DNA of 15,182 nucleotides, from positions 1 to 15,182 of the forward strand of contig CAZGJX010000098.1 in assembly GCA_964525635.1 (NCBI GenBank), given 5' to 3'. The position numbers were made by a program, and so were the translations under genes. The notes under the pieces are model-generated. The model had not been told where the DNA came from and did not search any database. It saw only the letters and a list, made by a program, of their open reading frames with translations. Of the stretch, positions 277 to 14,947 are shown piece by piece. The stretch's first letter is position 1. Each line of letters starts with the position of its first letter. This DNA comes from an uncultured archaeon. Its GTDB lineage: Archaea; Asgardarchaeota; Lokiarchaeia; Sigyniarchaeales; SOKP01.

Positions 277-813
277 TTAAATAAACTTAGATCTCTTCAT
301 TATTTCGATAATTAGAGTCATAAATACTTTTTCTATATTTTCTCCCGTTTTTGAAGAACATTCAAAATAATCAAGAATATTATAAGGTTTAGATAAATTA
401 GAAGCATGTTCAAGAGTTAATTTTCTTTCCGTAGTCAAATCTGATTTACCTCCTACAATTAAAATTGGTATTTGACCTCGCCATTCAACTAATTTATCTC
501 GAAATAGCGAAAACCATTTATCTATATTTAAAAGGCTTTCTTTATTTGTAATATCATACATAAATATTCCTCCGAAAGCACCCCGAGCATAGTTAGGTAA
601 AAGAGGTCTAAACAGTTCATCCCCGATGAAATCCCATATTTGTAGATTTAATTTTAAACCTTCAATAACTAAATTTTTAGAATTAATACTAACTCCCATT
701 GTTTTTCCTACACCTAAATCGAATTTATCTGTAATAAACCGATTAATTAGTGAAGTTTTTCCTACTCCGGAATCTCCGAAGACGCATATTTTAAATGCAG
801 CATCAAATGAAAT
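277..813 (-). CDS. Rab-like (Ras superfamily) small GTPase, about 178 aa, probable non-AUG (ATT) start
   Basis: The frame stays open upstream of the called ATG at 699 and reads (I)SFDAAFKICVFGDSGVGKTSLINRFITDKFDLGVGKTMGV. G1 is GDSGVGKT, G2 is T(MG), G3 is WDFIG, G4 is GKSD and G5 is CSSK. It also has Rab-like LQIWD and YARGA segments. The start position is inferred. Confidence 0.9.
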   Translation of the reverse strand: MSFDAAFKICVFGDSGVGKTSLINRFITDKFDLGVGKTMGVSINSKNLVIEGLKLNLQIWDFIGDELFRPLLPNYARGAFGGIFMYDITNKESLLNIDKWFSLFRDKLVEWRGQIPILIVGGKSDLTTERKLTLEHASNLSKPYNILDYFECSSKTGENIEKVFMTLIIEIMKRSKFI

Positions 814-819
814 CCTTAA

Positions 820-825
820 CCCCTC
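820..825 (-). promoter_or_regulatory. Putative Shine-Dalgarno (GAGGGG) for the Rab-like GTPase
   Basis: The minus strand reads ataGAGGGGttaaggATTtca. This G-rich island in AT-rich DNA lies 6 nt before the ATT at 813. Confidence 0.5.
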
Positions 826-1097
826 TATAAATTGGGATATAAATATTATTCTTTTAAAGAAGGAATCTTTTATATATATTCTAAATTAATTATTAATTAT
901 ATTAGTAAAAAATATTGTCAATAATAAAAGGATTGTTTATTTTAATTTTTATCAATAAATTTATTTATATCCCGATTTGTATTTGTATTGATAAAAATTA
1001 AAGAAAATATAAATATTCTTAAAATTAGATATTTCAAAAGAAATACCAATATAATAAAAATATATTAAATATAAAATTAAAAAACCAATGATTATTT

Positions 1098-2237
1098 ATG
1101 GGAAATGAATTTAAAGATTTTCATTATCCTTTCATTTTTATAGTTTTAATTATTGCTTACCAAATAAGTGCATATTGTTTTTACCTTTATTTTCGATATA
1201 AAAAGGAAAAGTTAAAGATTAACAATATTTCTTTAGCCTTTGCCTTTTTATATGGTTTTGGATTTACGGGGATTGTAATCCGTTCAATTAATAGCTATTA
1301 TATTGATGATTTGTTATTATCTAATTTATTTATTAAAATCTCACACATCTCAATATCTATAGCTGTTATTTTATTTTTGCTGATAATATCTCAAAAATAT
1401 TATAATGAATTGATTGATATACGTATCACAAGAATAGTTTTGTTTATTTCTGTTATGATATCAATTCTAATTTTCATAATTAATGATATAGCACTTTTTG
1501 AAATTCTAATTCTAATATCTCTTGTTATTGGTGGACTTTATATGTTATTTTTTCATATATTGTTAATACAAAAATCTACTGGAACTATTAGGAATAGATT
1601 GTTATCGGTGCTTATTGGAGACATAATAATTATTTTCATCGTAGTGATTGGAACTGAACGACATCCATATCTTTTTTCATCTGATGTACAAGATATTATC
1701 ACACTTCTTTCTAATCCATTAGTTATTTTAGGACAACTAATAGTTTTTTATTCAATATATGATTTTCCCATCTTTTTAGAATTTAATTGGCAAGAAAATA
1801 TATTAAATCTCTATATTCTTGACATAAATAGATTGAAAATTATTTTTCAACATAATTTTATAAAAGTAAATGAAGAAGAATTAATATCTAAGCAAAATTC
1901 TAAAAGTCATAACATAATATTTTCTGGTGGAATAATTGGGATGGAAAAAATAGTATCAGCAATGACAAAATCTAAAGAGTCAAAGATTGAAAAGATAAGA
2001 CAAGGTGAATATTTAATTTTATTAAATCAAGGTGAGAATGATTTTAATTTTCTTACATATTGCATTTTGGTTAAAAAAGATATGGTAAGTATCAGATATG
2101 TTTTAAAATTGATAAAGAACGAATTTACTAAGTTATATGGATCTATATTACAAGATTTAAAATTAATTGAGGATAAAGAGAGTCAAATATTTTTAGAATT
2201 TAATCAAATAATTGAAGATATATTTAAAACAAATTAA
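1098..2237 (+). CDS. 7-TM membrane protein with C-terminal longin-like domain (paralog A)
   Basis: Seven hydrophobic segments are visible in aa ~10-222, followed by the junction PIFLEFNWQ. The ~150-aa soluble tail has a beta-beta-alpha-beta-beta-beta-alpha-alpha pattern (ILNLYIL / IIFQHNF / FSGGIIGMEKIV / IEKI-YLILL-TYCILV / two helices), typical of longin folds. The fold call is pattern-based. Confidence 0.75.
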   Translation: MGNEFKDFHYPFIFIVLIIAYQISAYCFYLYFRYKKEKLKINNISLAFAFLYGFGFTGIVIRSINSYYIDDLLLSNLFIKISHISISIAVILFLLIISQKYYNELIDIRITRIVLFISVMISILIFIINDIALFEILILISLVIGGLYMLFFHILLIQKSTGTIRNRLLSVLIGDIIIIFIVVIGTERHPYLFSSDVQDIITLLSNPLVILGQLIVFYSIYDFPIFLEFNWQENILNLYILDINRLKIIFQHNFIKVNEEELISKQNSKSHNIIFSGGIIGMEKIVSAMTKSKESKIEKIRQGEYLILLNQGENDFNFLTYCILVKKDMVSIRYVLKLIKNEFTKLYGSILQDLKLIEDKESQIFLEFNQIIEDIFKTN

Positions 2238-2253
2238 AAACTAAAGATCTTTT

Positions 2254-3342
2254 ATGATTTTTGATAAAATTGAATTTCCCTTAGATGGACCTATAGCAGA
2301 TGTATTATTAGTTATTGAGTGGATAATTGTATTTATATATTTAGAATTTGCTTTAGTTTTTCTAAATCGTACTCTAAAATTTAAAAAAGAATTAAAAAGT
2401 CTGCAGGAAAAAGGATATGTATTTTTATTTTTAGGTTTTTCTTTAATGTGGATTTTTTTTATTATAGGAGATTATTATATGATCTCTCTTGATTTAAGAT
2501 ATATATGTCTTAACTGTGGTTATGTCTCATTAATGCTTGGGTGTGTTATTTTTTTTTATACTATTGAAAAAAATAAAATATTTTTAAAAAGATATTTATT
2601 TACATTGATATTCACATTAGATATTATTTTATTTATATTAATAATTTTTATCGATATATACTCTGGGCAGTTAATCACATTTACATTTTGGATAATTTTT
2701 CTTCTATTTTTTATTTTTTATTCAATAGAATTAGGTTCTATTTTCAAATCAAATCCGATATTAGGTAACTATAAATTTCAATATCTGAAATTAGTTTTGG
2801 GGATCATATTTCTTATTTTTGGTTTTGGTCTAACAATTGATTTTATTATAGATTTATTCGGATTAATTTCACGTGTAATAGGAGATTTATTACAAATAGG
2901 TGCAATTATATTCCTATTTTTATTTTTTATATCTATTCCTTCATTTTTAGAGTATGATTGGCAAAAGAAGGTTGAAAATATTTACATTATACATAAATCA
3001 GGATTACTTATATATGAAAAATCGTTTATAGGTGAAGATGATGATCAATATGATTCCTCTATTTCTGGCAAAATTACAAGCTTAAAAATGATGTTGGAAC
3101 ATATCAGTAAAAAAGAAGATATATCTGTTATTGAAAAAAAAGGAAAAATAATCATTATCCAACCAGGTCATTATATCTATGGAGTTTTGATTTGTAAAGT
3201 AAAGTTAAATTCACTTCAAATTCTTTTAAATAATTTTATTGAAAAAATTGAAGTGATTTATTCAAAGATCTTGGAAAAATGGGATGGAGATTTAAAGGTT
3301 TTAAGACCAATTGATAAAATTGTGAAAGATTATTTCATCTAA
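2254..3342 (+). CDS. 7-TM membrane protein with C-terminal longin-like domain (paralog B)
   Basis: Seven hydrophobic segments in aa ~17-228, then the junction PSFLEYDWQ. The tail reads IYIIHKSGLLIYEKSF...ISGKITSLKMML...VIEKKGKIIII...IYGVLI...LNNFIEKIE...WDGD, a longin-like pattern. The gene starts 16 bp after paralog A, so the two are probably co-transcribed. Confidence 0.78.
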   Translation: MIFDKIEFPLDGPIADVLLVIEWIIVFIYLEFALVFLNRTLKFKKELKSLQEKGYVFLFLGFSLMWIFFIIGDYYMISLDLRYICLNCGYVSLMLGCVIFFYTIEKNKIFLKRYLFTLIFTLDIILFILIIFIDIYSGQLITFTFWIIFLLFFIFYSIELGSIFKSNPILGNYKFQYLKLVLGIIFLIFGFGLTIDFIIDLFGLISRVIGDLLQIGAIIFLFLFFISIPSFLEYDWQKKVENIYIIHKSGLLIYEKSFIGEDDDQYDSSISGKITSLKMMLEHISKKEDISVIEKKGKIIIIQPGHYIYGVLICKVKLNSLQILLNNFIEKIEVIYSKILEKWDGDLKVLRPIDKIVKDYFI

Positions 3343-3383
3343 TTGAAAGGATAATCATAATTATTTGAAGTTATATCAAGGAA

Positions 3384-3398
3384 TTTTTTCTTTTTTTT
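3384..3398 (+). terminator. Possible oligo-T terminator after the 7-TM gene pair
   Basis: ttttttctttttttt about 40 nt after the stop at 3342. Confidence 0.4.
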
Positions 3399-3530
3399 CA
3401 ATATTTATCAATTTCTATCTTTAACAAGTTTGAGATCTATTGGTTGCATATTATCTGAGTATTATTTAATTTTTTGAAAAGTGCTTTCGTTGTTTTTCTT
3501 AAGATAATTTTTTTGCAATTGGTATTAAAT

Positions 3531-4013
3531 TTGATAGACATAAAAAGAAAAATATGTATAATAGGAGAAGGTGGAGTAGGGAAAACTTCTTTAGTCTCTC
3601 TACTTCAAGGAAAGGAGATGCAAAAAGAAAGGAGTCCTACGGTTGGTTTAGAAATTGAGGATTCTATTTTAAATGGTAATAAATGTTCAATTTGGGATTT
3701 AGGCGGGCAAGAGAGGTTTAGATTTATGTGGAAAGATTTTTTACGTAAATCTGGATTAACAGTTTTAGTTTGCGATTCAACAAAAAAGAATTTAGAAAAA
3801 ACTAAAGAAATCCTTAACAGATTTTCTAACTATATAGGTTCTAAAGTTATAGCTATTGCTAATAAACAAGATCTTGATAATGCTATGAGTCCTGATGATG
3901 TTGAGAAAACATTAGGTATAAAAACCTATGGTATGAGTGCTATTAAATCAGATTTACATAAAAGAATGCGTGAGATTTTTGAATATGAAATAAATCAAAA
4001 AGAAAATTCATAA
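3531..4013 (+). CDS. Arf-like small GTPase, about 160 aa (likely TTG start at 3531; the ORF track starts at 3474)
   Basis: G1 is GEGGVGKT, G2 is PTVG, G3 is WDLGGQERFRFMW (Arf-type GGQ..R..W), G4 is NKQD and G5 is SAI. The TTG at 3531 lies just before beta-1 (KICIIG). Confidence 0.9.
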   Translation: MIDIKRKICIIGEGGVGKTSLVSLLQGKEMQKERSPTVGLEIEDSILNGNKCSIWDLGGQERFRFMWKDFLRKSGLTVLVCDSTKKNLEKTKEILNRFSNYIGSKVIAIANKQDLDNAMSPDDVEKTLGIKTYGMSAIKSDLHKRMREIFEYEINQKENS

Positions 4014-4112: not shown

Positions 4113-4682
4113 TTAATATCCTCGGAAAGCTCTCCCAATTATATGAGCCATTCGAACACATTCAGGCAATTTTGAATCGATACTTACTTTCTGGAATAAT
4201 TGTTCTACTTCGTCAACTTCTATTCCTATCGCGTGATAGTATATCTTTGATTTCCCTGCAGCTGTACTTATTTTAGTTTCATATAAATTACCTGCTTCAC
4301 TGATCATCTTGAATTTTTGTTTATAATTTTTAGGATATTTATTAATTAAGGCATTTTTAACTGAATCAATATCTACTTCTCGTTCAGTAACAGCGATGAT
4401 TGGTTTATTAGTCTTATTATAAATTTCTTTGATATTAACAAGATTAAATCCTCCAAAAGTTATTGTATGTGTAAATATATATTGAACATGATCTTTATTT
4501 CGTTGAATTAATTCGATTAATTTTTCTGTAGCATCATTACCATCAATGGTAATTAAATCTTTTTCTACTCTTACCATTCGTATTCCCTGACAAATAACAC
4601 CAATTAAATACGTATGAGTAGAATCCGCACTTAATTGAAATGTTGCATCATCAAATCCATAAACAATTGGATAATCTTTCAT
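4113..4682 (-). CDS. DUF99 family protein (endonuclease V-like fold)
   Basis: Motifs GFDDA, IDGNDAT, ITFGGFN and KLPECVRMAHII. Its start overlaps the upstream gene's stop as ATGA (4679-4682). Confidence 0.85.
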   Translation of the reverse strand: MKDYPIVYGFDDATFQLSADSTHTYLIGVICQGIRMVRVEKDLITIDGNDATEKLIELIQRNKDHVQYIFTHTITFGGFNLVNIKEIYNKTNKPIIAVTEREVDIDSVKNALINKYPKNYKQKFKMISEAGNLYETKISTAAGKSKIYYHAIGIEVDEVEQLFQKVSIDSKLPECVRMAHIIGRAFRGY

Positions 4683-5131
4683 GTTTTATCTTCAGGTAAA
4701 AATTTTTTTACATTCAAAAGAAGTTTATTAAAAGCATTGGAAGCAATTTCTATTTCTAATCCTCTATCAACAATATTTTTTGATAATTGATTTACCAAAA
4801 AATCAATAATCTCATTAATTGTAATATTATTATTTATCCAAACGTAAGCAATGATTGCTTCTACTGTATCAGCAAGATCATGAGCATCAGCCCTATTTCT
4901 CGCAAAATCTTTCATATTTGCTTTCCTTAACGCTTCAGCTAAAATTTTTTTACTGACTTTTTGACCCGTTCGAATAGTGATATTTTTATTATGATTTCTT
5001 GTTAAACAAATGGATTTAGCAACTGAATATGTTAAATTAACAATTCCATCTCCAATTTTAGCTAGACCTTTATCTGTACCAATTGCTTTTTGAGTCTTTG
5101 GGATATTATTAATTAAAAAAGAATAAGCCAT
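4679..5131 (-). CDS. Archaeal ribonuclease III-like single-domain protein
   Basis: DKGLAKIGDGIVNL and ADTVEAIIAY match the RNase III signature helices. There is no dsRBD. It sits in its usual position next to rpoL and DUF99. Confidence 0.8.
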   Translation of the reverse strand: MAYSFLINNIPKTQKAIGTDKGLAKIGDGIVNLTYSVAKSICLTRNHNKNITIRTGQKVSKKILAEALRKANMKDFARNRADAHDLADTVEAIIAYVWINNNITINEIIDFLVNQLSKNIVDRGLEIEIASNAFNKLLLNVKKFLPEDKT

Positions 5132-5186
5132 TATATATTGATGATTCGCATAACTTTAAAAAATTATCATTATAAGGAATTCAAAG

Positions 5187-5675
5187 TTATGTAAGATTTT
5201 TAAAAATCTTTTGAACTTGAATTACTTCATTTCTTAAATTACTGATCCCTGTTCTTAAAATCTCTTTTATTTTAAAACCTTTTTTTAATTTTATAAATAT
5301 TTTAGGAGATTCAACATTATTTTTTTTATAAGCTGCAATATCTACTCCTTCTAAAGCTAATAGATGTTTTACAAAGACATTTAAAAAGCCATGAGATTGG
5401 CCATCAACAAGAATTTCATAATTATTTTCCCCTTCTTTCTTGATTATTTGTAAATCTAGATATTTATATTCTGGGACTTCTTCTTCTTCTTCTTCGAATT
5501 CAACATCTTCTTCCTCTCCTTCCATTAGATCATCTACGGCTTCTAAATCATCAACTTTATCTTTTTTTTTCCCTTTTTCTATTTTAGGATAAACAATTTC
5601 AATTTCTTGATCTTCTAGTTCCTCTAAGTCGTCAAAACCTTCTTCATCTTTATCTTCTTCTTTTTTCTTTGCCAT
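5187..5675 (-). CDS. rpoL: DNA-directed RNA polymerase subunit Rpo11/L with acidic N-terminal extension
   Basis: The C-terminal ~90 aa (EILVDGQSHGFLNVFVKHLL..GVDIAAY...PKIFI...terminal helix) resemble Rpo11/Rpb11. It lies downstream of csl4 as in other archaea. The canonical HP motif is missing. Confidence 0.8.
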   Translation of the reverse strand: MAKKKEEDKDEEGFDDLEELEDQEIEIVYPKIEKGKKKDKVDDLEAVDDLMEGEEEDVEFEEEEEEVPEYKYLDLQIIKKEGENNYEILVDGQSHGFLNVFVKHLLALEGVDIAAYKKNNVESPKIFIKLKKGFKIKEILRTGISNLRNEVIQVQKIFKNLT

Positions 5676-5683
5676 TAAAATAA

Positions 5684-5688
5684 CTCCT
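5684..5688 (-). promoter_or_regulatory. Shine-Dalgarno AGGAG for rpoL
   Basis: The minus strand reads ttAGGAGttattttaATG, which supports the start at 5675. Confidence 0.65.
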
Positions 5689-5910
5689 AAATAATTGTAC
5701 TTATTAAAAATAGTATTTCATAAAATAAATGTTTTTTGATTTAAGTAATCTAAGATTTATTCAAACTATTGTAAATAGCAATTATTTGTATTGAAAAAAG
5801 AAAAATTGAGGTATTTCTCGAAATTTAGAATAATAAACTTCTTTGTTTTTTTTACCAGTTTTTTGATTGTTTATAAATAGTTTTAAGCTTATACTATCTT
5901 TTATCAATAA

Positions 5911-6129
5911 TTATTCTAACAATTGTTCTGCCAAATCTTTTATTCTTCCGATAGCAAGATGCTGTAGATCTCTTGGACCTGACAATTTAATTTTAATAAC
6001 TTTTCCTTCTACTGTACAATTTATATCTAAATAATCTATCTTTTTTTGAATTGATTCGAGAAACTTTACAATGTTTTCTAATTTACCAGTATTATTGTAG
6101 AATCGTATAATTTTTTTTCCTTTAGTCAT
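5911..6129 (-). CDS. Small alpha/beta protein, DUF2067-like (N-terminal domain only)
   Basis: 72 aa with a beta-alpha-beta-beta-alpha pattern (IKIKLSGPRDLQHLAIGRIKDL). It lies between csl4 and rpoL, where DUF2067 genes occur in some archaea. Confidence 0.55.
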   Translation of the reverse strand: MTKGKKIIRFYNNTGKLENIVKFLESIQKKIDYLDINCTVEGKVIKIKLSGPRDLQHLAIGRIKDLAEQLLE

Positions 6130-6173
6130 AATTTATCAAAAAATAGCTATTATTAAAAATAAATATTTTAGAA

Positions 6174-6770
6174 TTAGAATCTTAAATGATATGAAATATC
6201 TCTATAATCACCTGCTAACTTACGATTTTCTTTATTTCCACACATAGAACATTGTAATCTACTATATCCCATTTTATCTAAAGGTGTTCCACATACCGAA
6301 CAGTCAGCATGGATTACTCCAAGATTCTTTCCTGTTGTAGTTAAATCATACTCATTCTCTTTTTCTTCAATAACTTTTGCTCGAATTATATCTGTAACCT
6401 GAAAAGCATCTGTTATTTGTTCTACATATTTGTTAGATATTTGACTTACATGTATATTTCCAAAGAAATAAGAGTTAAAATGTACTTTTCTGTTAATAGT
6501 ATAAAAATTTAAACCCACAGAATATTTTCTTACAAATAAAATAGAACCTAATATAATATCACCAATTTTCACTATTTTTCTATCTTTATCTTGGTGAGTT
6601 TCTATATTAATTTTTCTTTTATCCATATCTAAAGATATTAATCCACTTTTAGTTGCATAAATGGCACCTTCTTTTACATAAGTAGAATCCTTGTCAGGGA
6701 GATATTCTTCAACTACTCCTAAATATTCTCCAGTTAACACAATATCTTTATTTTTTAATAGTTTTTTCAT
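6174..6770 (-). CDS. csl4: Exosome complex RNA-binding protein Csl4
   Basis: N-terminal VLTGEYLGVVEEYLP, S1 domain (IHVSQIS...DIIRAKV), and zinc ribbon CSVCG...CSMCGNKENRKLA. Confidence 0.95.
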   Translation of the reverse strand: MKKLLKNKDIVLTGEYLGVVEEYLPDKDSTYVKEGAIYATKSGLISLDMDKRKINIETHQDKDRKIVKIGDIILGSILFVRKYSVGLNFYTINRKVHFNSYFFGNIHVSQISNKYVEQITDAFQVTDIIRAKVIEEKENEYDLTTTGKNLGVIHADCSVCGTPLDKMGYSRLQCSMCGNKENRKLAGDYRDISYHLRF

Positions 6771-6880
6771 GAATCACAACAAAACCGAACTTTTTTCTCA
6801 TATGTTTCTCTTCTATTTATTTAAAATTTATTAATGTAAATAAATTTATTGATAATGAATATTACGATCGTTAAAATTAT

Positions 6881-7534
6881 ATGGAGGAAATTAAAATAAG
6901 AAAAAAAGATCTTATTTCTATTGTTCAAAATGTTGAAAGTTTTACAAATCCTAAAATTCAATTAGAACAATATACAATTGATGCTGTATGTGCAGTTGAT
7001 ATTATCTTTTTCGCAGGTTTTGAATTTAATGATATAAAAAATAGATTTATTTTTGATATGGGATCTGGAACAGGAAGATTATCTATAGCAAGTGCTTTTC
7101 TAAATGCTCATACTATTATTAGTATTGATTTAGATGCCAATGCTCTAAAAATTTTACAAAAAAACATAAACTTTCTTGAATTAGAGAATGTTATTTTTCC
7201 ATTATGTTGTACTGTAGAAAATTTAGAAATAAAAAAAGAAAAACTACCTAAAGACTTGAAAATTACAACAATTATGAATCCTCCATTTGGAATTCAAAAA
7301 GAACATGCTGATAGATTTTTTCTGAAAAAAGCATTTTCAATATCAGATGTTATATATTCAATTCATATAGCCAATCAAAAAGTTCAAAGATTTTTTAAAG
7401 ATTTTGCAAAACGACGACATTGGGAAGTTGATTATATTCTTCCTTATAATATGGTTCTTGAAAAAGCATTTCCATTTCATACACAAAGTAGAAAAAATAT
7501 AAATGTTGATGTGTATAGATTTTTAAAAAAATAA
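6881..7534 (+). CDS. METTL5-family SAM-dependent N6-adenine RNA methyltransferase
   Basis: PKIQLEQY, SAM-binding DMGSGTG, catalytic NPPFG, YSIH and a C-terminal FH motif. Divergent from csl4. Confidence 0.9.
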   Translation: MEEIKIRKKDLISIVQNVESFTNPKIQLEQYTIDAVCAVDIIFFAGFEFNDIKNRFIFDMGSGTGRLSIASAFLNAHTIISIDLDANALKILQKNINFLELENVIFPLCCTVENLEIKKEKLPKDLKITTIMNPPFGIQKEHADRFFLKKAFSISDVIYSIHIANQKVQRFFKDFAKRRHWEVDYILPYNMVLEKAFPFHTQSRKNINVDVYRFLKK

Positions 7535-7554
7535 GCATCTTATGCAAAAAGACA

Positions 7555-7572
7555 TTTTTTTTTATTTATTTT
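7555..7572 (+). terminator. Oligo-T terminator after the methyltransferase gene
   Basis: T9 run plus atttatttt about 20 nt after the stop, in the convergent gap with eno. Confidence 0.45.
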
Positions 7573-7656
7573 AAAAGATATTTAAAGCATTAATTATTTT
7601 TTTAATAGAATTAAGGGAAATTTAAAAAATATCTAATAAGAATAAAATAAAAAAAA

Positions 7657-8961
7657 TTATTGGAAATTACTCCAAGATTTAAAATCTTTAGGATATTTTG
7701 CATTTTCTCCTAGTAATTCCTCAATCCGTAATAATTGGTTAAATTTAGCACATCTATCAGATCTTGCTGTTGCTCCCGCTTTTATCTGTCCCGAACAAAG
7801 TCCTACAGCTAGATCTGCAATAAATGCATCTTCTGTTTCACCTGATCGATGAGAAACCATAACATTAAAATTATTTTTAAAAGACATTTTCGCTGCTTTT
7901 ATAGCTTCAGTTAGGGATCCAATTTGATTTACCTTTAATAATAATGCATTACCAGCACCTTGATTTATCGCATTTTCTAGAATCTTAATATTTGTCACTG
8001 TAATATCATCATCTACAATTTGAATTGAATTACCAACTTTTTTAGTTAATTCTGCAAAATTTAAAAAATCCTTTTCATCAAAAGGATCTTCAATAGATGT
8101 TAATGGATATTCTTTTGTTAAATCTACATAATATTGCAATAAATCTTCTTCTGTTAATACTTTTCCATCAATATCATACTTTCCATTTTTATAGAATTCA
8201 CTTGCAGCAGCATCCATAGCTAAAACAAATTCTTTTCCCATTGTGAATCCTCTTTCCTCAATTGCCTCAATTATAACATTTAACGCATCTCTCGTCAATG
8301 TCAAATCAGGAGCAAATCCGCCTTCATCACCAACATTTATTGCATTTGGACCATATTTTTTTGATAAAATACCTTTTAAAACATGATATACCTCTGATAC
8401 ATAACGAATTGCAGTAGAGAATGAATCAGCTCCAACAGGAAGAATCATAAACTCTTGTATTGAAAGATTATTACCTGCATGTTCTCCTCCATTTAGTATA
8501 TTACAACATGGAAGTGGTAATAAATAATCTTTTCTTGTTTTATTATAGCTTAACTCATAAAGATGCTCAAATAAAGGAATATTCTTTAGATTGGCAGCCA
8601 ATTTTGCAACTGCTAATGAAACAGAGAGTATAGCATTTGCTCCTAAATTTTTTTTATTATTGGTACCATCAATTTCAATCATTTTATTATCAATTAATTC
8701 TTGTTCCCTAACATCCAAACCTATTAATTCTTTAGCTAAAATATTATTAACATTTCCAACCGCTTTAGTTACATGTTTTCCTAAAAACTCATTCCCTTTA
8801 TCTCTTAATTCCAAGGCTTCTAATTCTCCTGTTGAGGCTCCAGAAGGTACAGCTGCTCTCCCCATAATATTATTTGAAATAACATCACATTCAACAGTAG
8901 GATTTCCTCGAGAATCAATAATCCATCTTGCTTTAATCTTCTCAATTTTAAAATCTGTCAT
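7657..8961 (-). CDS. eno: Enolase (phosphopyruvate hydratase)
   Basis: DSRGNPTVE, VPSGASTG, GDEGGFAP, DAAASEF, LLKVNQIG, SHRSGETED and NQLLRIEE. Confidence 0.98.
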   Translation of the reverse strand: MTDFKIEKIKARWIIDSRGNPTVECDVISNNIMGRAAVPSGASTGELEALELRDKGNEFLGKHVTKAVGNVNNILAKELIGLDVREQELIDNKMIEIDGTNNKKNLGANAILSVSLAVAKLAANLKNIPLFEHLYELSYNKTRKDYLLPLPCCNILNGGEHAGNNLSIQEFMILPVGADSFSTAIRYVSEVYHVLKGILSKKYGPNAINVGDEGGFAPDLTLTRDALNVIIEAIEERGFTMGKEFVLAMDAAASEFYKNGKYDIDGKVLTEEDLLQYYVDLTKEYPLTSIEDPFDEKDFLNFAELTKKVGNSIQIVDDDITVTNIKILENAINQGAGNALLLKVNQIGSLTEAIKAAKMSFKNNFNVMVSHRSGETEDAFIADLAVGLCSGQIKAGATARSDRCAKFNQLLRIEELLGENAKYPKDFKSWSNFQ

Positions 8962-9224
8962 AAAAATCTTGTATTTTTAGAATATTTTTTTTTAAATTTA
9001 ATATAAAAAAGGAAGGAATTGAATATTATATTAACCATCTCAAATAATAAATAAAAAAGTATGAAATATAGATAAATTTTGATTCGCTTACCTCAGAGCT
9101 TTTATATTTAAGTGATTATCTAATTTTTACATATAATGAAATAAAATCCTAATTCTCTAATAATAAATATTTTAATGTTAAAATCACTTTATTTTTAAAT
9201 TATCAATTAATTTAATAAATAGAT

Positions 9225-10190
9225 ATGTCAAACCGTCCTTGGGTAGAAAAATATAGACCTCGAGTTTTAGATGATGTAGTTAATCAAATTGGAATTCTAA
9301 AAAGATTAAAGCAATTTATTAAAGATAAATCCATGCCTCATCTTATTTTTGCAGGACCTGCAGGTACTGGAAAAACAACTTCTGCCCTAGCGATGGTAAG
9401 GGAATTATACGGGTCTAAAATGGCAATAAATCATACTTATTTAGAATTAAATGCGAGTGATGCTCGAGGTATTGATGTTATTAGAACATATATCAAGGAT
9501 TTTGCAAAAGCAAGACCTCCTATGGATATTTCTTATAAAATTCTAATATTAGATGAAGCTGATAATATGACCTCTCCTGCTCAACAAGCTTTAAGAAGAA
9601 CAATGGAAAAATATACTAAAAATTGTAGAATGGTTTTAATTTGTAATTATTCAAATAAAATCATACCACCAATTCAATCTAGATGTGTAGTGTTCAGATT
9701 CTCTTCTCTTTCAAATGAAGATATAAAAAAAAGAATTAAAAGTATCGCCCAAAAAGAGAATATCGAAATAAATCCTGATGGTCTAAATGCTTTAGTTGAT
9801 GTGTCAAGAGGAGATTTAAGGAGAGCGATAAATTATTTACAATCATGTGGTACAATCTCTAATAAAATTGACCAAGAAATTGTTTTTCGAGTAGCAGGGG
9901 AAGTACCACCAGAGAAAATAAAAGTAATATTAAATGTAGCGATACAAGGAGAATTAGAATTATCAATAAAATTATTAGGGGAGATAATTAATAATTATGG
10001 ACTATCTGGAAGGAACATTATTAAGAATATACATAGAGAAATCTATAATCTTAATATTCCAGAACTAATGAAAATTGAATTATCTAAGATTTTAGCAGAA
10101 TTCGAATATAGACTTACACAAGGGGCAACTGAAGAAATTCAATTACAAGCTTTATTAGCTAAAATCGTTCTTTTGCATGATATTGAATAA
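9225..10190 (+). CDS. rfcS: Replication factor C small subunit
   Basis: PWVEKYRP, Walker A GPAGTGKT, LELNASD, Walker B DEAD, SRC motif and GDLRRAIN. 321 aa with no intein. Confidence 0.96.
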   Translation: MSNRPWVEKYRPRVLDDVVNQIGILKRLKQFIKDKSMPHLIFAGPAGTGKTTSALAMVRELYGSKMAINHTYLELNASDARGIDVIRTYIKDFAKARPPMDISYKILILDEADNMTSPAQQALRRTMEKYTKNCRMVLICNYSNKIIPPIQSRCVVFRFSSLSNEDIKKRIKSIAQKENIEINPDGLNALVDVSRGDLRRAINYLQSCGTISNKIDQEIVFRVAGEVPPEKIKVILNVAIQGELELSIKLLGEIINNYGLSGRNIIKNIHREIYNLNIPELMKIELSKILAEFEYRLTQGATEEIQLQALLAKIVLLHDIE

Positions 10191-11003
10191 ATTATATTGA
10201 AGCCAATATTTATACTCCTGAGATTGAAAATGATAATTTAAACGGTCAATTGATTTCTTATCAATCATAAATTTTATATTTTTATCGTATTCAATATCCC
10301 ATAATATTAATCCTTTAGGATCAGCTGGTTCATATGAGACATATTCTGAAGTATCTAATAAATTTATAAATTCTGTAAAGGTAATATCTCCCATTCCAAG
10401 TTCAAGAATTTTTTTTACAATTCTTCTTATTTGTTGCCTTAAAAATGCCTTACTTTTAAACTCCAGAATCAAAGAATCATTTATAAGATTTAAATCTACA
10501 AATTTCATATCTCTGATAGTTTTTTTTTTTTCTTTACTTCTTTTTGAGAAATTTAGAAAATCATGGTTGCCTATTAATGCTCTACATGCTTTCTCCATGA
10601 CTCGAATATTAATATTATATTTTTTCTTTAAATAACTAAAGGGTTGAGGAACAATGTATTTATAATGTCTTAATATTGCATTAAATCTTGGCGAATAATC
10701 ACTAGGAACTAAAGAATATGCCCATAATCCAATATCTTTTGGTAAAGATGAATTTAACTCCATTAATACTGGTTTTTTCTTAGTTATTAATGAAAATACC
10801 GCTCCTCTGGCAGAAACATATCTATCAGTTCTACTAGCAGACTCAAACTTTGAAGATTGTGTATCATCAATATAATTCTTTTCTTTAAATTTATTAATTA
10901 GATTTTCTTCTATGCTTGGTAGTATTTTCTGTCTTTGGGATCCATAGAAATCCTTTCCTCCAATATAATAAAACTTGAAAAAAAATTTTTGTTCAGCAAC
11001 CAT
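10155..11003 (-). CDS. truA: tRNA pseudouridine(38-40) synthase TruA
   Basis: FYGSQRQ, SRTD (catalytic Asp) followed by VSA, RHYKY, GNHDFLNFS, FLRQQIRRIV and PKGLILWDIEY. Confidence 0.93.
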   Translation of the reverse strand: MVAEQKFFFKFYYIGGKDFYGSQRQKILPSIEENLINKFKEKNYIDDTQSSKFESASRTDRYVSARGAVFSLITKKKPVLMELNSSLPKDIGLWAYSLVPSDYSPRFNAILRHYKYIVPQPFSYLKKKYNINIRVMEKACRALIGNHDFLNFSKRSKEKKKTIRDMKFVDLNLINDSLILEFKSKAFLRQQIRRIVKKILELGMGDITFTEFINLLDTSEYVSYEPADPKGLILWDIEYDKNIKFMIDKKSIDRLNYHFQSQEYKYWLQYNLFNIMQKNDFS

Positions 11004-11269: not shown

Positions 11270-14200
11270 ATGTCGAAGATCATCAATACTACTAAAAACT
11301 TACGCGATCGTGTAAGTGCTAGTGTGACAATAAAGAAGCAAAACATTCTATTTTACACAGCTTTATTTTTAGTGTTTATATTAGCAATATGGTTAAGATT
11401 ATCACCATTACTTCAAGATGAACAATTAATAAAAGCCTTTGATCCTTGGATTCAATATTATAACGCAGAATATCTCTCTCAAAATGGTCCTTATGAGTAT
11501 TTTATTTGGCATGATATCAAAAGTTGGTATCCTCAGGGAATTGATAGATTTTACTTAAGACCTGGTTTAACTTTCACTGTAGTCTTTTTCCATGATATAC
11601 TTAATTTTCTTGGACTTCCTATTTCATTATACGATGTATGCTACTTCTTTCCTGCGTTTATGGCAGGATTGACAGTATTAGCGATATATTTTCTTGGAAA
11701 AGAGATTTTAGATAGGAAAGTTGGATTATTAGCAGCATTTTTCCTGGCGTTTAGTCCGGGATATATGCAAAGAACTATAGCTGGATTTTTTGATAATGAA
11801 ACAATTGGTGTTTTTGCTACTATTATGACTTTTCTCTTCTTTTTAAAAACCTTGAGAACTGGAAGAACAACTTATTCTATTTTAGGAGGTATATTTTCTG
11901 GGTATTTAGCATTGAGTTGGGGAGGATATGAATTCGTATTTTACACTATACCAATTGTATGTATTTTATTAATTCTATTAAATAAATATAATTCAAATGT
12001 TCTAATTGCCTACGCAGGAGTTCAAGGAGTTGGACTATTAATTGCTAGTTTTTACTATTTCTTTAAATTTGAAAAGTTATTCACTAGTATAGATATTGGG
12101 GGAATATTGCTCTTCACGATACTCATAATATTTTATCATATTCTTTATACTAGGAAAAAGACTATGCCCAATACGTATAGAAGAGTGACGAATTTTATTA
12201 AATGGGGAATAATTCCTACTGCTATAGTTGTAGCTGTAATAATTTGGGTGAATCCAAAACTCATTCCTTTTGGAATAGGTGCAAGACTCAATAGTGTTCT
12301 TAACCCTCTGTTCAGAAATCAAATAAATTTAGTAGCATCAGTAGCAGAACATATGCCAAGCTCTTGGAGTGTATTTTATTATGATATCTTAATTCCTCTA
12401 ATGTTATTACCATTAGGAATATACTTTTGTTTCAAACGATATAATAGTGCAGACATCTTCTTATTAGTTTTTACATTATTATTATTCTATTTTACTGGAA
12501 GTATGATAAGAATTATGTTAGTCTTTGCTCCTGCTGCAGCATTAATGGGTTCTTATGGATTAGTTAATGTGTTAAAAATATTTGGTAGTTTTCATGGAAA
12601 AAGAAAAGTAGGTGTAAGTCGTAAAAGAACAAAATTAATGAGAAGGAAAAAAACATTAGGGAAAAAGGAAGTTTATGGTGTTTATCTTATCGTTGGCTTC
12701 TTATGCCTTGTTCAAGTTACCCACGCAGTCGATATTTCCGTCCAAATGTCTTCTGGACAGATGGTTCCAGGAGGGGTTCTTCATGATTGGGAAGAATCTT
12801 TAACATGGATGCAGAATAATTTGCCTGGGGATACTGTTGTTGTAAGTTGGTGGGATTATGGATATTGGCTAACCCCAATAGGAAATATGACAACTGTTAA
12901 TGATAATGCCAATATTAATTCCTCCAGAAATGGTCTGACTGGAATGGCATTAATGCAAACAAATGAGATATATAGTGCAAAAATATTGAAATTGCTTAAA
13001 GCGGATTATGTACTAGTGTATTTTGGATTCTTATATGATGGATTGGGAGGAGATGAAGGAAAATGGCAATGGATGTTAAGAATTTGCAATGATCATTATG
13101 AGAAATATAAACGTTGGGGATTAGAAGAAGATAACTGGAAGGAAACTTCTGTATTTGATGAAGAGGAATATTATAATGATACATCTTATAGACAAGAAGA
13201 TAAATGGTTTGATAGTCAATTAGCAAAATTAATGTTTTATGGATTACCAACGGTAGATGAACCTTATGAGGGCCACCCAGATGGTAATTATGCAGATGGT
13301 ACAATTATTCAAGATTATATCAATAAAATAAATGCTCGCCCAGTTGATAATGGAGGATTCTGGGCAGATAAAATACCTACAAACGGTAATTATCAATTTG
13401 ACGTTTTTAGGCCCCCAAATCCTAATGATCCTGGTGACCCTAATGCGGGGTATTTCTCAAGCAATCTTTTAGTTAAGCTATATAAAATTGATTACACTCC
13501 ATTAGAATCACAATTTATCATTGAAGAACCACAAATCTTTGATAGTGGTTATGGAACAGTTAAAGTGAAGAATATTGGAACTAAAGAAATAATAATTTCT
13601 GATATAAAAGTTAACAATGAAACGAGAACTTTTGATATGGGTAGGTCCTTTGGTAATAATAAGCTAGAAGAAGGTGAAGAAGATATTATTTGGTTTAATA
13701 CAAGCGATGGTAGTGGTGCTTCTCTCTTCAATGAATATGATACTGCCCAATTAGAGATTACTGCTACATCAGAAGCACTCGGAGGAAGGACTTATACATT
13801 TAGTAACTCGACAAGTTATTTCTTTGTTAAAGAAGCTAAACCAGGGAATATAAAGATTATAAGAGAAAACAGTATTTTCGTGTATAATGAAACAACGGGA
13901 GTAGATGATGGATATATTGAAGTTGAGAATATCGGTGAAAATCCTATTGTTATCGATAGTTTCTATGTAAATTCAATCAATAACAAATTTACAACAGTGG
14001 ATTATATAGAAGGATCTTCTATAATTGAGCCAGGAGCAACTTCATTAGCATATCTTCCTAATTCGCCTGTTCCATTCTCAATGAGGTGGGGAAGTAATAT
14101 AATAGGTACTATGAATAATGTAAGTGTTGTAACTATGAATGATGTAGAAGATACGACAATATTTACATCAAATTTAAAGACTGATACAAAACAATATCAA

Positions 14201-14947
14201 TTATCAATAATACCACAGGAACGAATTGTTTCACCAGAATTTTATGCATTAACAGATGCATCAATTCGTAATTATATCTCTCCTGATGCATATACTAATG
14301 CTTTTACGTATGAAAATGGAAGTACTATAATCAATCTTAAAGTTAAAAATACTGGTACCAATAAAATCAGCTTATATGAATTATCTCTTCTAAATGGTAA
14401 TTGGTCATTCATAGACTCATCCGACTATCAATGGACACCTGCTGGGGGATATCTTTTAAATGTTACTGAAGAAACAATTATAAACATTAACGTTGATAGT
14501 AATGTTTTCAAGGTTAATGATGAAATTGGCATGAGTATTTCTGCTTATTTTGATGATAAAAAAGTTGCTTCTGATGCAGGATTTATATATACATTAAACG
14601 GCACTGTTGGTAGTGAGGATATTAAAATCCTTAATAAAGTTCATGGATATAATGCTTCAAGTATATACGTTGATACAGAAACTGGAAATGCAACTGGATG
14701 GATAACCGTTAAAAATGTAGGAATATCTGATTTGACTCTTAATGTCGCGGATTGTGTAAGTGCTGTGTCTTTAACTACCTCGAAGATTAATATAACATAT
14801 GGAGATATAGACTTAGGTCCTCAAGAATGTGCTATTTTAGAATTCGCTCTAAGTGGAGGTATAGATCGTTGGGACACCATAATAATTATTATTGAGACCG
14901 TTGAAGGTATATCTGATGAACTAGAGCTTACTGCTATTCCTTTATAA
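11270..14947 (+). CDS. aglB: Oligosaccharyltransferase AglB/STT3 with long C-terminal extension
   Basis: Multi-TM N-terminal half with FDPW, GFFDNE and SVAEH. WWDYG is at 12848-12862 and the DK motif DEGKWQWM at 13052-13075. The core ends at VKLYKIDY (~13495), followed by about 480 additional aa. Confidence 0.96.
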   Translation: MSKIINTTKNLRDRVSASVTIKKQNILFYTALFLVFILAIWLRLSPLLQDEQLIKAFDPWIQYYNAEYLSQNGPYEYFIWHDIKSWYPQGIDRFYLRPGLTFTVVFFHDILNFLGLPISLYDVCYFFPAFMAGLTVLAIYFLGKEILDRKVGLLAAFFLAFSPGYMQRTIAGFFDNETIGVFATIMTFLFFLKTLRTGRTTYSILGGIFSGYLALSWGGYEFVFYTIPIVCILLILLNKYNSNVLIAYAGVQGVGLLIASFYYFFKFEKLFTSIDIGGILLFTILIIFYHILYTRKKTMPNTYRRVTNFIKWGIIPTAIVVAVIIWVNPKLIPFGIGARLNSVLNPLFRNQINLVASVAEHMPSSWSVFYYDILIPLMLLPLGIYFCFKRYNSADIFLLVFTLLLFYFTGSMIRIMLVFAPAAALMGSYGLVNVLKIFGSFHGKRKVGVSRKRTKLMRRKKTLGKKEVYGVYLIVGFLCLVQVTHAVDISVQMSSGQMVPGGVLHDWEESLTWMQNNLPGDTVVVSWWDYGYWLTPIGNMTTVNDNANINSSRNGLTGMALMQTNEIYSAKILKLLKADYVLVYFGFLYDGLGGDEGKWQWMLRICNDHYEKYKRWGLEEDNWKETSVFDEEEYYNDTSYRQEDKWFDSQLAKLMFYGLPTVDEPYEGHPDGNYADGTIIQDYINKINARPVDNGGFWADKIPTNGNYQFDVFRPPNPNDPGDPNAGYFSSNLLVKLYKIDYTPLESQFIIEEPQIFDSGYGTVKVKNIGTKEIIISDIKVNNETRTFDMGRSFGNNKLEEGEEDIIWFNTSDGSGASLFNEYDTAQLEITATSEALGGRTYTFSNSTSYFFVKEAKPGNIKIIRENSIFVYNETTGVDDGYIEVENIGENPIVIDSFYVNSINNKFTTVDYIEGSSIIEPGATSLAYLPNSPVPFSMRWGSNIIGTMNNVSVVTMNDVEDTTIFTSNLKTDTKQYQLSIIPQERIVSPEFYALTDASIRNYISPDAYTNAFTYENGSTIINLKVKNTGTNKISLYELSLLNGNWSFIDSSDYQWTPAGGYLLNVTEETIININVDSNVFKVNDEIGMSISAYFDDKKVASDAGFIYTLNGTVGSEDIKILNKVHGYNASSIYVDTETGNATGWITVKNVGISDLTLNVADCVSAVSLTTSKINITYGDIDLGPQECAILEFALSGGIDRWDTIIIIIETVEGISDELELTAIPL
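13496..14944 (+). repeat. Four degenerate ~120-140 aa protein-level repeats (Ig-like beta-sandwich) in the AglB tail
   Basis: The motif recurs as VKVKNIG (~13559), IEVENIG (~13916), LKVKNTG (~14336) and ITVKNVG (~14702). Each is followed by a matching strand: LEEGEEDII, IEPGATSLA, LNVTEETII and LGPQECAIL. Confidence 0.75.

Follow-up and report, generated by a model that had tools for sequence, protein, structure and literature searches.

To our knowledge, Asgard Rab-like GTPases have so far been assigned no native guanine nucleotide exchange factor (GEF), no GTPase-activating protein (GAP) and no membrane receptor. The relevant section of PMC10933270 describes longin heterodimers as platforms for small GTPases that mostly act as GEFs, and it reports that these Asgard GTPases are without a lipid anchor and that gene layout hampers the matching of regulators to them. 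Among the closest described systems are an Asgard DENN-roadblock-Rab operon, in which a roadblock/longin-type regulator likewise stands beside a Rab-like GTPase, and NPRL2-like longins fused to two-component domains, in which the longin likewise takes part in a signalling fusion (both as presented in a section of 10.1101/2020.10.19.343400). The proteins of the DENN-roadblock-Rab operon are soluble and include DENN, and a membrane heterodimer with seven transmembrane helices (7TM) is absent from the section that describes them (10.1101/2020.10.19.343400). The locus analyzed here lies in a DNA of 15,182 nucleotides (the window), which is an entire contig (C98) of the genome of an uncultured archaeon of the order Sigyniarchaeales (Lokiarchaeia; genome G000, 4.45 Mb, 27% GC). 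It contains two adjacent genes, A and B, each encoding a putative 7TM bundle with a longin tail, a divergently oriented Rab-like GTPase gene on the left and an Arf-like GTPase gene on the right. A preliminary description had proposed that both GTPases bracket the pair in a module resembling G protein-coupled receptors (GPCRs). Both position and orientation of the four open reading frames (ORFs) were verified, and the comparison of related loci indicates that the module consists of three genes (Rab, A and B) rather than four, with the function proposed for it below.

Homologs of B are present in 67 out of 121 genomes of the order. The 60 stretches around the best-scoring matches were fetched and most lower-scoring ones omitted, so that these loci lean to the clade of the window; an additional sample comprised 80 loci of the Rab family described below. 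Removal of duplicates left 71 copies of B and 62 A-B pairs. In 62 of the 71 copies, B is immediately preceded by gene A, and the remaining nine consist of five copies at contig ends, one split gene, one second B in tandem and two that stand alone. The gap between A and B is 23 bp or less in 54 of the 62 pairs, the identities of the two proteins are correlated (0.94), and the source genome holds three such pairs. The linkage to a GTPase was counted in the 58 pairs that were picked by B similarity alone, excluding the four reached via the Rab. A small GTPase gene directly adjoins 27 of these pairs (24/46 where both flanks reach 1 kb), and 24 of the 27 belong to one Rab-like family that lacks the switch II glutamine (Gln-less). 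The background was taken from the gene pairs of the source genome only, where any GTPase lies beside 95 out of 2588 (3.7%) and a member of the Gln-less Rab family beside 6 out of 2588. After clustering of B, 12 out of 30 clusters at 60% identity and 8 out of 19 at 45% identity were positive; kin remain non-independent despite the clustering, and p-values are not relied on. The 27 adjoining GTPase genes are located upstream and co-oriented (13), upstream and divergent (9), downstream and co-oriented (4) or downstream and convergent (1).

The triad of Rab, A and B persists while its surroundings change. The 28 triads span 17 flank groups, 12 of which were compared on the basis of at least three flanking genes, and at least 12 changes of flank are seen, some inside one genus, as the identity of A+B falls to 30%. 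Tree distances of A+B and of the Rab are correlated (r = 0.79, n = 28), and the nearest neighbors of the two concur in 22 out of 27 cases. Two genomes (G089 and G083) contain two divergent triads apiece, each with its own Rab, which together with the mirrored trees suggests that all three genes were duplicated and relocated together. A quick tree places all 28 linked Rabs within a part of 47 rows that is shared with 19 unlinked rows. Three more pairs have members of other GTPase families directly upstream (loci L062, L074 and L084). In locus L130 the B gene is broken into frames of 196 and 173 aa inside an otherwise intact Rab-A-B triad, and in L073, L076 and L079 the triad is flanked on both sides by Ras-family-domain proteins of about 520 aa, with a RING-finger gene adjoining one of them.

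The two membrane proteins have seven hydrophobic segments apiece in a hydropathy analysis and are paralogous over their full length (24% identity over 243 aa in BLASTP, E = 5e-6; hhalign 99.9%, 344 columns). AlphaFold2 models based on alignments of 54 (A) and 95 (B) sequences display in both chains seven long helices and, after them, a longin fold (pLDDT 80.6 for A and 91.6 for B), each chain having a single longin of about 125-145 aa and a tail secondary structure in the longin order beta-beta-alpha-beta-beta-beta-alpha-alpha. A comparison of the models with 48,161 solved chains matched the tails to the VAMP7 longin (Z 13.0, rmsd 2.8, 114 aligned) and further to CPLANE (Z 13.0 and 11.8), Sec22, Synbindin, AP sigma/mu and Mon1-Ccz1 chains. 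Foldseek listed adaptor sigma/zeta subunits as the top matches of the B tail, with MglB also among the matches, and against the PDB none of its matches reached E 0.001. Neither Pfam nor NCBIfam assigned a family to A or B; the tails gave solely a weak Pfam match to Robl_LC7 (E = 0.03), and scattered weak longin-type matches were found among the 95 B homologs (Sybindin 8, Clat_adaptor_s 4, Fuz_longin_1 3). In the Atlas, the clusters closest to B are of Asgard origin. The membrane parts matched the hydrolase ACER3 (Z 13.1, rmsd 3.7, 193 aligned), the adhesion receptors CD97 (Z 12.9, rmsd 4.2, 206 aligned) and ADGRL3 (Z 13.6, rmsd 4.2, 206 aligned), GABA-B (Z 11.9-12.8), GPR156 and the rhodopsin KR2; AdipoR2, Myomaker, ACER3 and microbial rhodopsins score level with GPCRs.

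Lysine and arginine concentrate in loops 1, 3 and 5 of both families (B, 95 sequences, K+R per loop: inner 4.6/3.2/3.6 versus outer 1.0/1.1/0.4/0.3; A, 54 sequences: inner 4.2/1.4/2.1 versus outer 0.8/1.2/0.4/0.6). Based on the positive-inside rule, the N terminus of each protein is therefore predicted to be outside and the C terminus inside, which would place both longin domains in the cytoplasm. The preliminary description is thus borne out in its pair of adjacent 7TM/longin paralogs and, at the level of prediction, in its cytoplasmic C termini. In the outer half of the B bundle the charged residues E22, D73, R82, D196, R207 and D211 are kept in 62-84% of the family and may line a single pocket; the A family shows no equivalent conserved outer charged residues. 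The first longin helix (alpha-1) carries glycines in A (G278 and G281) and B (G272), and A G278 and B G272 are each present in 27/27 Rab-linked pairs compared with 21/27 and 16/27 unlinked pairs, respectively. No conserved arginine was found in the family alignments of either tail. Long B fusions (663-2000 aa), such as a fusion with a GTPase, were absent at E 1e-8, a negative that carries little weight, and the B relatives of 530-550 aa that were checked are MFS-longin proteins, longin-kinase proteins or unassigned, none with a GTPase domain.

The left-hand gene encodes a Rab-like GTPase, as the preliminary description had stated (Pfam Ras, E = 1e-39; best solved relatives Rab11, Thor-Rab and Ypt6, E 1e-44 to 1e-43), and the named records among its closest relatives are mostly labelled Promethearchaeota. 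Its switch II reads WDFIGD, without the glutamine, its G4 motif is GGKSD, and a C-terminal cysteine is absent. Among the 27 linked Rabs, the switch II position is occupied by glutamine in 1, glutamate in 21 and aspartate in 3, the G4 asparagine is replaced by glycine in 23, none has a cysteine in the last six residues, and no conserved arginine is found in switch I. A C-terminal cysteine is generally missing from archaeal Rab-like proteins, according to a passage of PMC4915359. No ATG, GTG or TTG codon lies upstream of the P-loop in the Rab gene of the window. The same holds for 23 out of 101 family members, 21 of which have ATT, ATA or ATC exactly 12 codons before the P-loop, and 18 of the remaining 78 members carry ATG at that position. 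In a DNA alignment of 14 sequences, ten ATH codons (ATT, ATC or ATA) and four ATG codons share one column behind a purine-rich element, and on this ground the gene is read as 277-813, with ATT 813-811 as the most likely start; this start restores 178 aa, and a reading of the gene as a 140-aa fragment lacking the P-loop was rejected. Conserved use of ATT, ATA and ATC, which interchange as apparent starts, was observed in the window (811-825, minus strand) and in L031-L041, L050, L058, L094-L103, L115, L126 and L164, and is possibly a way of keeping expression low in this Rab clade. Locus L168 contains four Gln-less Rab genes in tandem.

Taken together, A and B are proposed to form a longin heterodimer anchored in the membrane. 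It would dock its Rab and probably activate it, with a ligand site in B as the gate, and about even chances are given to this reading. The two proteins would be co-transcribed and, as gene pairing and longin biology suggest, would assemble as a heterodimer in the cell membrane, the predicted orientation of the seven-helix bundles allowing the two longins to meet in the cytoplasm. There they would build an alpha-1 to alpha-1 platform like that of Mon1-Ccz1 or Bet5-Trs23. In Mon1-Ccz1, alpha-1 glycine mutants lose exchange activity, as a section of PMC5216073 reports, and these glycines appear equivalent in position to A G278 and B G272. At the membrane, the platform would serve as the dock of the cognate Gln-less Rab, a protein without a lipid anchor, and would most likely promote nucleotide exchange on it; the lack of a conserved arginine in both tails favors such a GEF or docking role over a GAP with an arginine finger. 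B, with its outer charged residues, would be the likely ligand-binding subunit and A its partner, so that a signal from outside or from the membrane may gate the GTPase via B, and where no GTPase gene adjoins the pair, the GTPase used would be encoded elsewhere. A complex prediction with the A tail, the B tail and the Rab scored 0.80-0.82 and the partner-replaced controls 0.00, 0.00 and, with A replaced, 0.68; a margin of 0.20 over the controls was required, and since the A-replaced control is too close the prediction weighs neither way on binding. Resemblance to solved longin-Rab complexes could also inflate its score.

Several observations weigh against this proposal. A total of 31 out of 58 pairs, including the other two pairs of the source genome, have no adjacent GTPase, A or B directly adjoins the Rab at only 18 out of the 80 Gln-less Rab loci, and the close ortholog L100 is a Rab without A-B. 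A phylum-wide search identified B homologs in 58 out of 201 genomes. Beyond the order, 34 loci from five families contain single B-like genes or B-B tandems, and no adjacent GTPase was detected in them; family f2 likewise has none (0/5 loci), and one locus of family f4 has a partial GTPase-like frame at the contig end. The presence of the fusion without a GTPase in the distant families suggests that 7TM-longin proteins are Asgard-wide and older than the Rab linkage. Of the 17 genes with several transmembrane segments and a longin in the source genome, two are adjoined by a GTPase, both at this locus, and neither longin nor 7TM-longin genes are enriched overall beside GTPases in that genome. 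The neighborhood enrichment anticipated in the preliminary description thus holds for the Rab beside this A-B family and fails for 7TM-longin genes in general. Most cases could go back to one or two ancestral linkages, the four orientations are interconvertible by local inversions, the contrast in glycines between linked and unlinked pairs is confounded by relatedness, and the neighboring gene families of the pairs point to no ligand. Position 15, an arginine in 67% of the B family, is an alanine in the B of the window, and the Z scores of 10-13.6 between helical bundles may reflect just a common arrangement, the best match of B being the hydrolase ACER3. The absence of a GTPase neighbor in half of the pairs and in all distant families is also what would be expected if A-B is a real membrane heterodimer and the Rab merely a hitch-hiker by old adjacency, with the longin dimer serving a coat-like, kinase or scaffold partner. 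The adaptor subunits at the top of the Foldseek matches fit this alternative, as does a section of PMC10933270 according to which the GTPase genes of MK-D1 generally lie outside operons with longin genes. The persistence of the triad through changing flanks and falling identity argues against it, and so do the other GTPase families directly upstream of three pairs; it is considered fairly unlikely.

The same heterodimer and Rab could also work in the opposite direction, with the longin platform as a GAP or brake and a self-loading Rab that is switched off until ligand binds. Plant 7TM-RGS1 restrains a self-activating G-alpha and MglB acts on MglA, and MglB is found among the matches of the B tail. 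Ras biochemistry leads one to expect that the loss of the switch II glutamine and the G4 asparagine slows hydrolysis and loosens nucleotide binding, and most linked Rabs have lost both. However, the same changes are common to the whole Rab family of about 100 members, most of them unlinked, and neither the tails nor switch I of the linked Rabs offers a conserved arginine, which makes a braking role unlikely. The bundles might instead be an anchor, lipid-handling or transporter-like, so that the longin dimer docks the Rab within a module that is an effector or a fixed membrane landmark. The equally high scores of ACER3, Myomaker, AdipoR2 and microbial rhodopsins would agree with this, and MFS transporters and single-pass surface proteins bear the same longin tail; against it, the zinc-site histidines of CREST hydrolases are not conserved, the helix-7 lysine is absent, and the restriction of the conserved outer charges to B is an asymmetry that fits a ligand subunit and its partner better, so that this explanation is held to be improbable. 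The original four-gene version, in which A-B couples to the Rab-like and the Arf-like protein alike, is very remote. The Arf-like gene is co-oriented with B and lies 188 bp downstream of it (from TTG 3531) in this genome, yet it flanks only 1 out of 62 pairs, the best score of an Arf query at the other 61 loci being 56 bits compared with 346 bits here; two genomes of the same genus that contain the triad carry the Arf ortholog on a separate contig beside an endonuclease dU gene, and a T-tract separates B from the Arf-like gene. Bracketing by two GTPases is therefore a feature of this locus, and elsewhere the Rab side alone recurs. The docking and activation of the Rab by A-B is retained as the preferred reading.

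The right-hand gene is an Arf-like GTPase, as proposed in the preliminary description (Pfam Arf, E = 2e-22), with TTG 3531 rather than 3474 as the most likely start, and is single-copy in 21 out of 25 relatives. An N-terminal amphipathic helix is a feature of the Arf family, as stated in a part of 10.1101/2024.02.28.582541. Residue 6 of the Arf-like protein aligns with Arf residue 18, and in 12 out of 19 orthologs the open frame extends just 10-17 codons ahead of the P-loop, which leaves no room for such a helix. None of the 19 ortholog loci has a 7TM-longin gene within 1.5 kb, and 14 of them carry endonuclease dU and RNase III-like genes, as the window does downstream. Membership of the gene in the module was accordingly rejected; judged by gene order, it is a neighbor through rearrangement that belongs to the right-hand block. 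The T-tract noted in the preliminary description is present (table 1), and T runs of at least six are frequent in the DNA of the window, so that the tract is of a common type. A sigma-70 promoter scan identified 37 sites compared with 34.5 expected and carries no information for an archaeal host.

Table 1. Features of the Rab-A-B locus and its right-hand neighbor (positions in the window)
Feature	Position	Strand	Remarks
Rab-like small GTPase, 178 aa	277..813	-	probable ATT start; member of the module
Intergenic region of 284 bp, AT-rich, separating the divergent Rab gene and A	814..1097	.	
GAGGGG, purine-rich and Shine-Dalgarno-like, 6 nt ahead of the ATT codon proposed to start the Rab gene	820..825	-	putative
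Subunit A of 379 aa, with the 7TM bundle at about aa 2-220 and the longin at about aa 235-379	1098..2237	+	
Subunit B, 362 aa, 16 bp downstream of A: 7TM aa 13-227, longin aa 240-362	2254..3342	+	
T-tract, 42 bp past B	3384..3398	+	putative; possible archaeal terminator
Arf-like small GTPase, about 160 aa	3531..4013	+	start TTG 3531; not a member of the module

Outside the module, the window encodes a LysW-like zinc ribbon, endonuclease dU, an RNase III-like protein, an RpoL with a long acidic N terminus, a Csl4-like protein and a methyltransferase (47-214 and 4113-11003). The last three ORFs of this set are, presumably, enolase, the RFC small subunit and TruA, which they resemble by motifs. 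An STT3/AglB oligosaccharyltransferase of 1225 aa follows (11270-14947), and its C-terminal extension of about 600 residues has no assigned domain.

The longin domain looks like a general output domain in the source genome. A total of 69 of its proteins contain a related longin, 17 of them with at least five transmembrane segments, about 17 are around 730 aa long (the one examined is a TPR-longin protein), and several are large surface proteins with one transmembrane segment before the longin; soluble ones also occur. One gene that ends at a contig edge (L232; G000:C234:1-1628, minus strand) encodes several transmembrane segments, a longin and HisKA/HATPase. Its tail is homologous to that of B and its membrane part has no detectable homology; the position of the longin between the membrane part and the histidine kinase suggests that B-type tails are used in sensors. 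At L235 (G000:C133:270-7050) a surface protein of 1605 aa with a transmembrane segment and a longin is encoded immediately after a tandem array of three Gln-less Rab genes, and a similar GTPase adjoins a surface-longin gene on another contig (G000:C199). Fusions of an MFS transporter with a longin (about 530-550 aa) were found in L119, L134, L146, L240 and L242, in three of these loci four genes from a Gln-less Rab, and are candidate transceptors. The B-like genes of family f9 (L200-L227) recur in a gene cluster of varying order, together with genes for an oligopeptide ABC ATPase, MFS, acyltransferase, DinB-like and DUF362 proteins, which perhaps hints at a ligand in that lineage.

The triad pairs a putative regulator with its GTPase in about 28 natural versions, for which unlinked pairs and paralogous Rabs can serve as controls of specificity, and the tails, being small and soluble, lend themselves to direct assay. 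A possible route of an unprenylated Rab to the membrane is a further suggestion from the triad. If the 7TM part gates activity, the module would be, by function, a prokaryotic G protein-coupled receptor, with a bearing on the origin of GPCRs, a question that a section of PMC13466386 treats as open and for which it weighs a rhodopsin ancestry. A stronger version, in which the bundles are homologous to GPCRs and a ligand-gated heterodimeric receptor activates a dedicated Rab via a fused longin GEF, would predate heterotrimeric G proteins and join the origins of GPCRs and of Mon1-Ccz1/TRAPP; it is regarded as quite unlikely.

Among known systems, Mon1-Ccz1, BLOC-3 (HPS1-HPS4), Fuzzy-Inturned and the TRAPP subunits Bet5-Trs23 resemble the tails in the paralogous longin pair (Z 10-13), the small alpha-1 residues and the matched Rab. 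Tri-longin GEFs contain three longins per subunit, according to a section of PMC7703760, compared with one per chain in A and B, and this difference led to the rejection of A and B as members of that group. They are also soluble, whereas the longins of A and B are fused to a 7TM bundle, and the linked Rab differs from the Rabs of longin GEFs in lacking the glutamine, the G4 asparagine and a prenylation site. GPCRs (class C GABA-B and adhesion receptors) share with A and B the seven helices and the predicted orientation, and the apparent obligate heterodimer with its asymmetry is a further likeness. The modelled helix arrangement is similar too, at Z values over about 200 residues that ACER3 and microbial rhodopsins equal and that helical bundles can attain in general. 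Identity is 8-13%, and the output of A and B would be a fused longin and a Rab-like GTPase. A search for class A motifs in the A and B families found DRY-like motifs in 8/95, 3/54 and 0/54 and NPxxY in 0/95, 0/54 and 2/54 sequences, there is no conserved cysteine in their transmembrane parts, and the four weak partial matches to G-alpha (PF00503) in the source genome all fall below the Pfam cut-off. With class A motifs and G-alpha missing, membership of the GPCR family was rejected. A microbial rhodopsin was likewise rejected, the most conserved lysine columns lying in cytoplasmic loops and the tail and none in helix 7. CREST hydrolases (ACER3, PAQR) carry SxxxH and HxxxH zinc ligands; with HxxxH in 3/95, 0/54 and 1/54 sequences and all histidine columns at or below 39%, this assignment was rejected as well. 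An Atlas feature score of 0.80-0.81 to HisKA_7TM (PF16927) is a lead only, with 0.2% in hhalign to one member and no match of the HisKA_7TM model in the source genome. In plant 7TM-RGS1 a 7TM part is joined to a GTPase-regulating RGS domain that acts on a heterotrimeric G-alpha, not to a longin that acts on a Rab. The same architecture is already catalogued under asCOG 005893, 012914 and 013555, which share the 7TM-longin fusion by label, as a putative eukaryotic signature protein of the Lokiarchaeia (in the part of PMC9834061 concerned); the comparison is by label only, and the label gives no topology, pairing or GTPase link. Two genes of L. ossiferum with this label have no GTPase among their listed neighbors. 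No description of paired 7TM-longin genes with a matched Rab was found in full-text searches of the literature, which leave subscription journals mostly uncovered.

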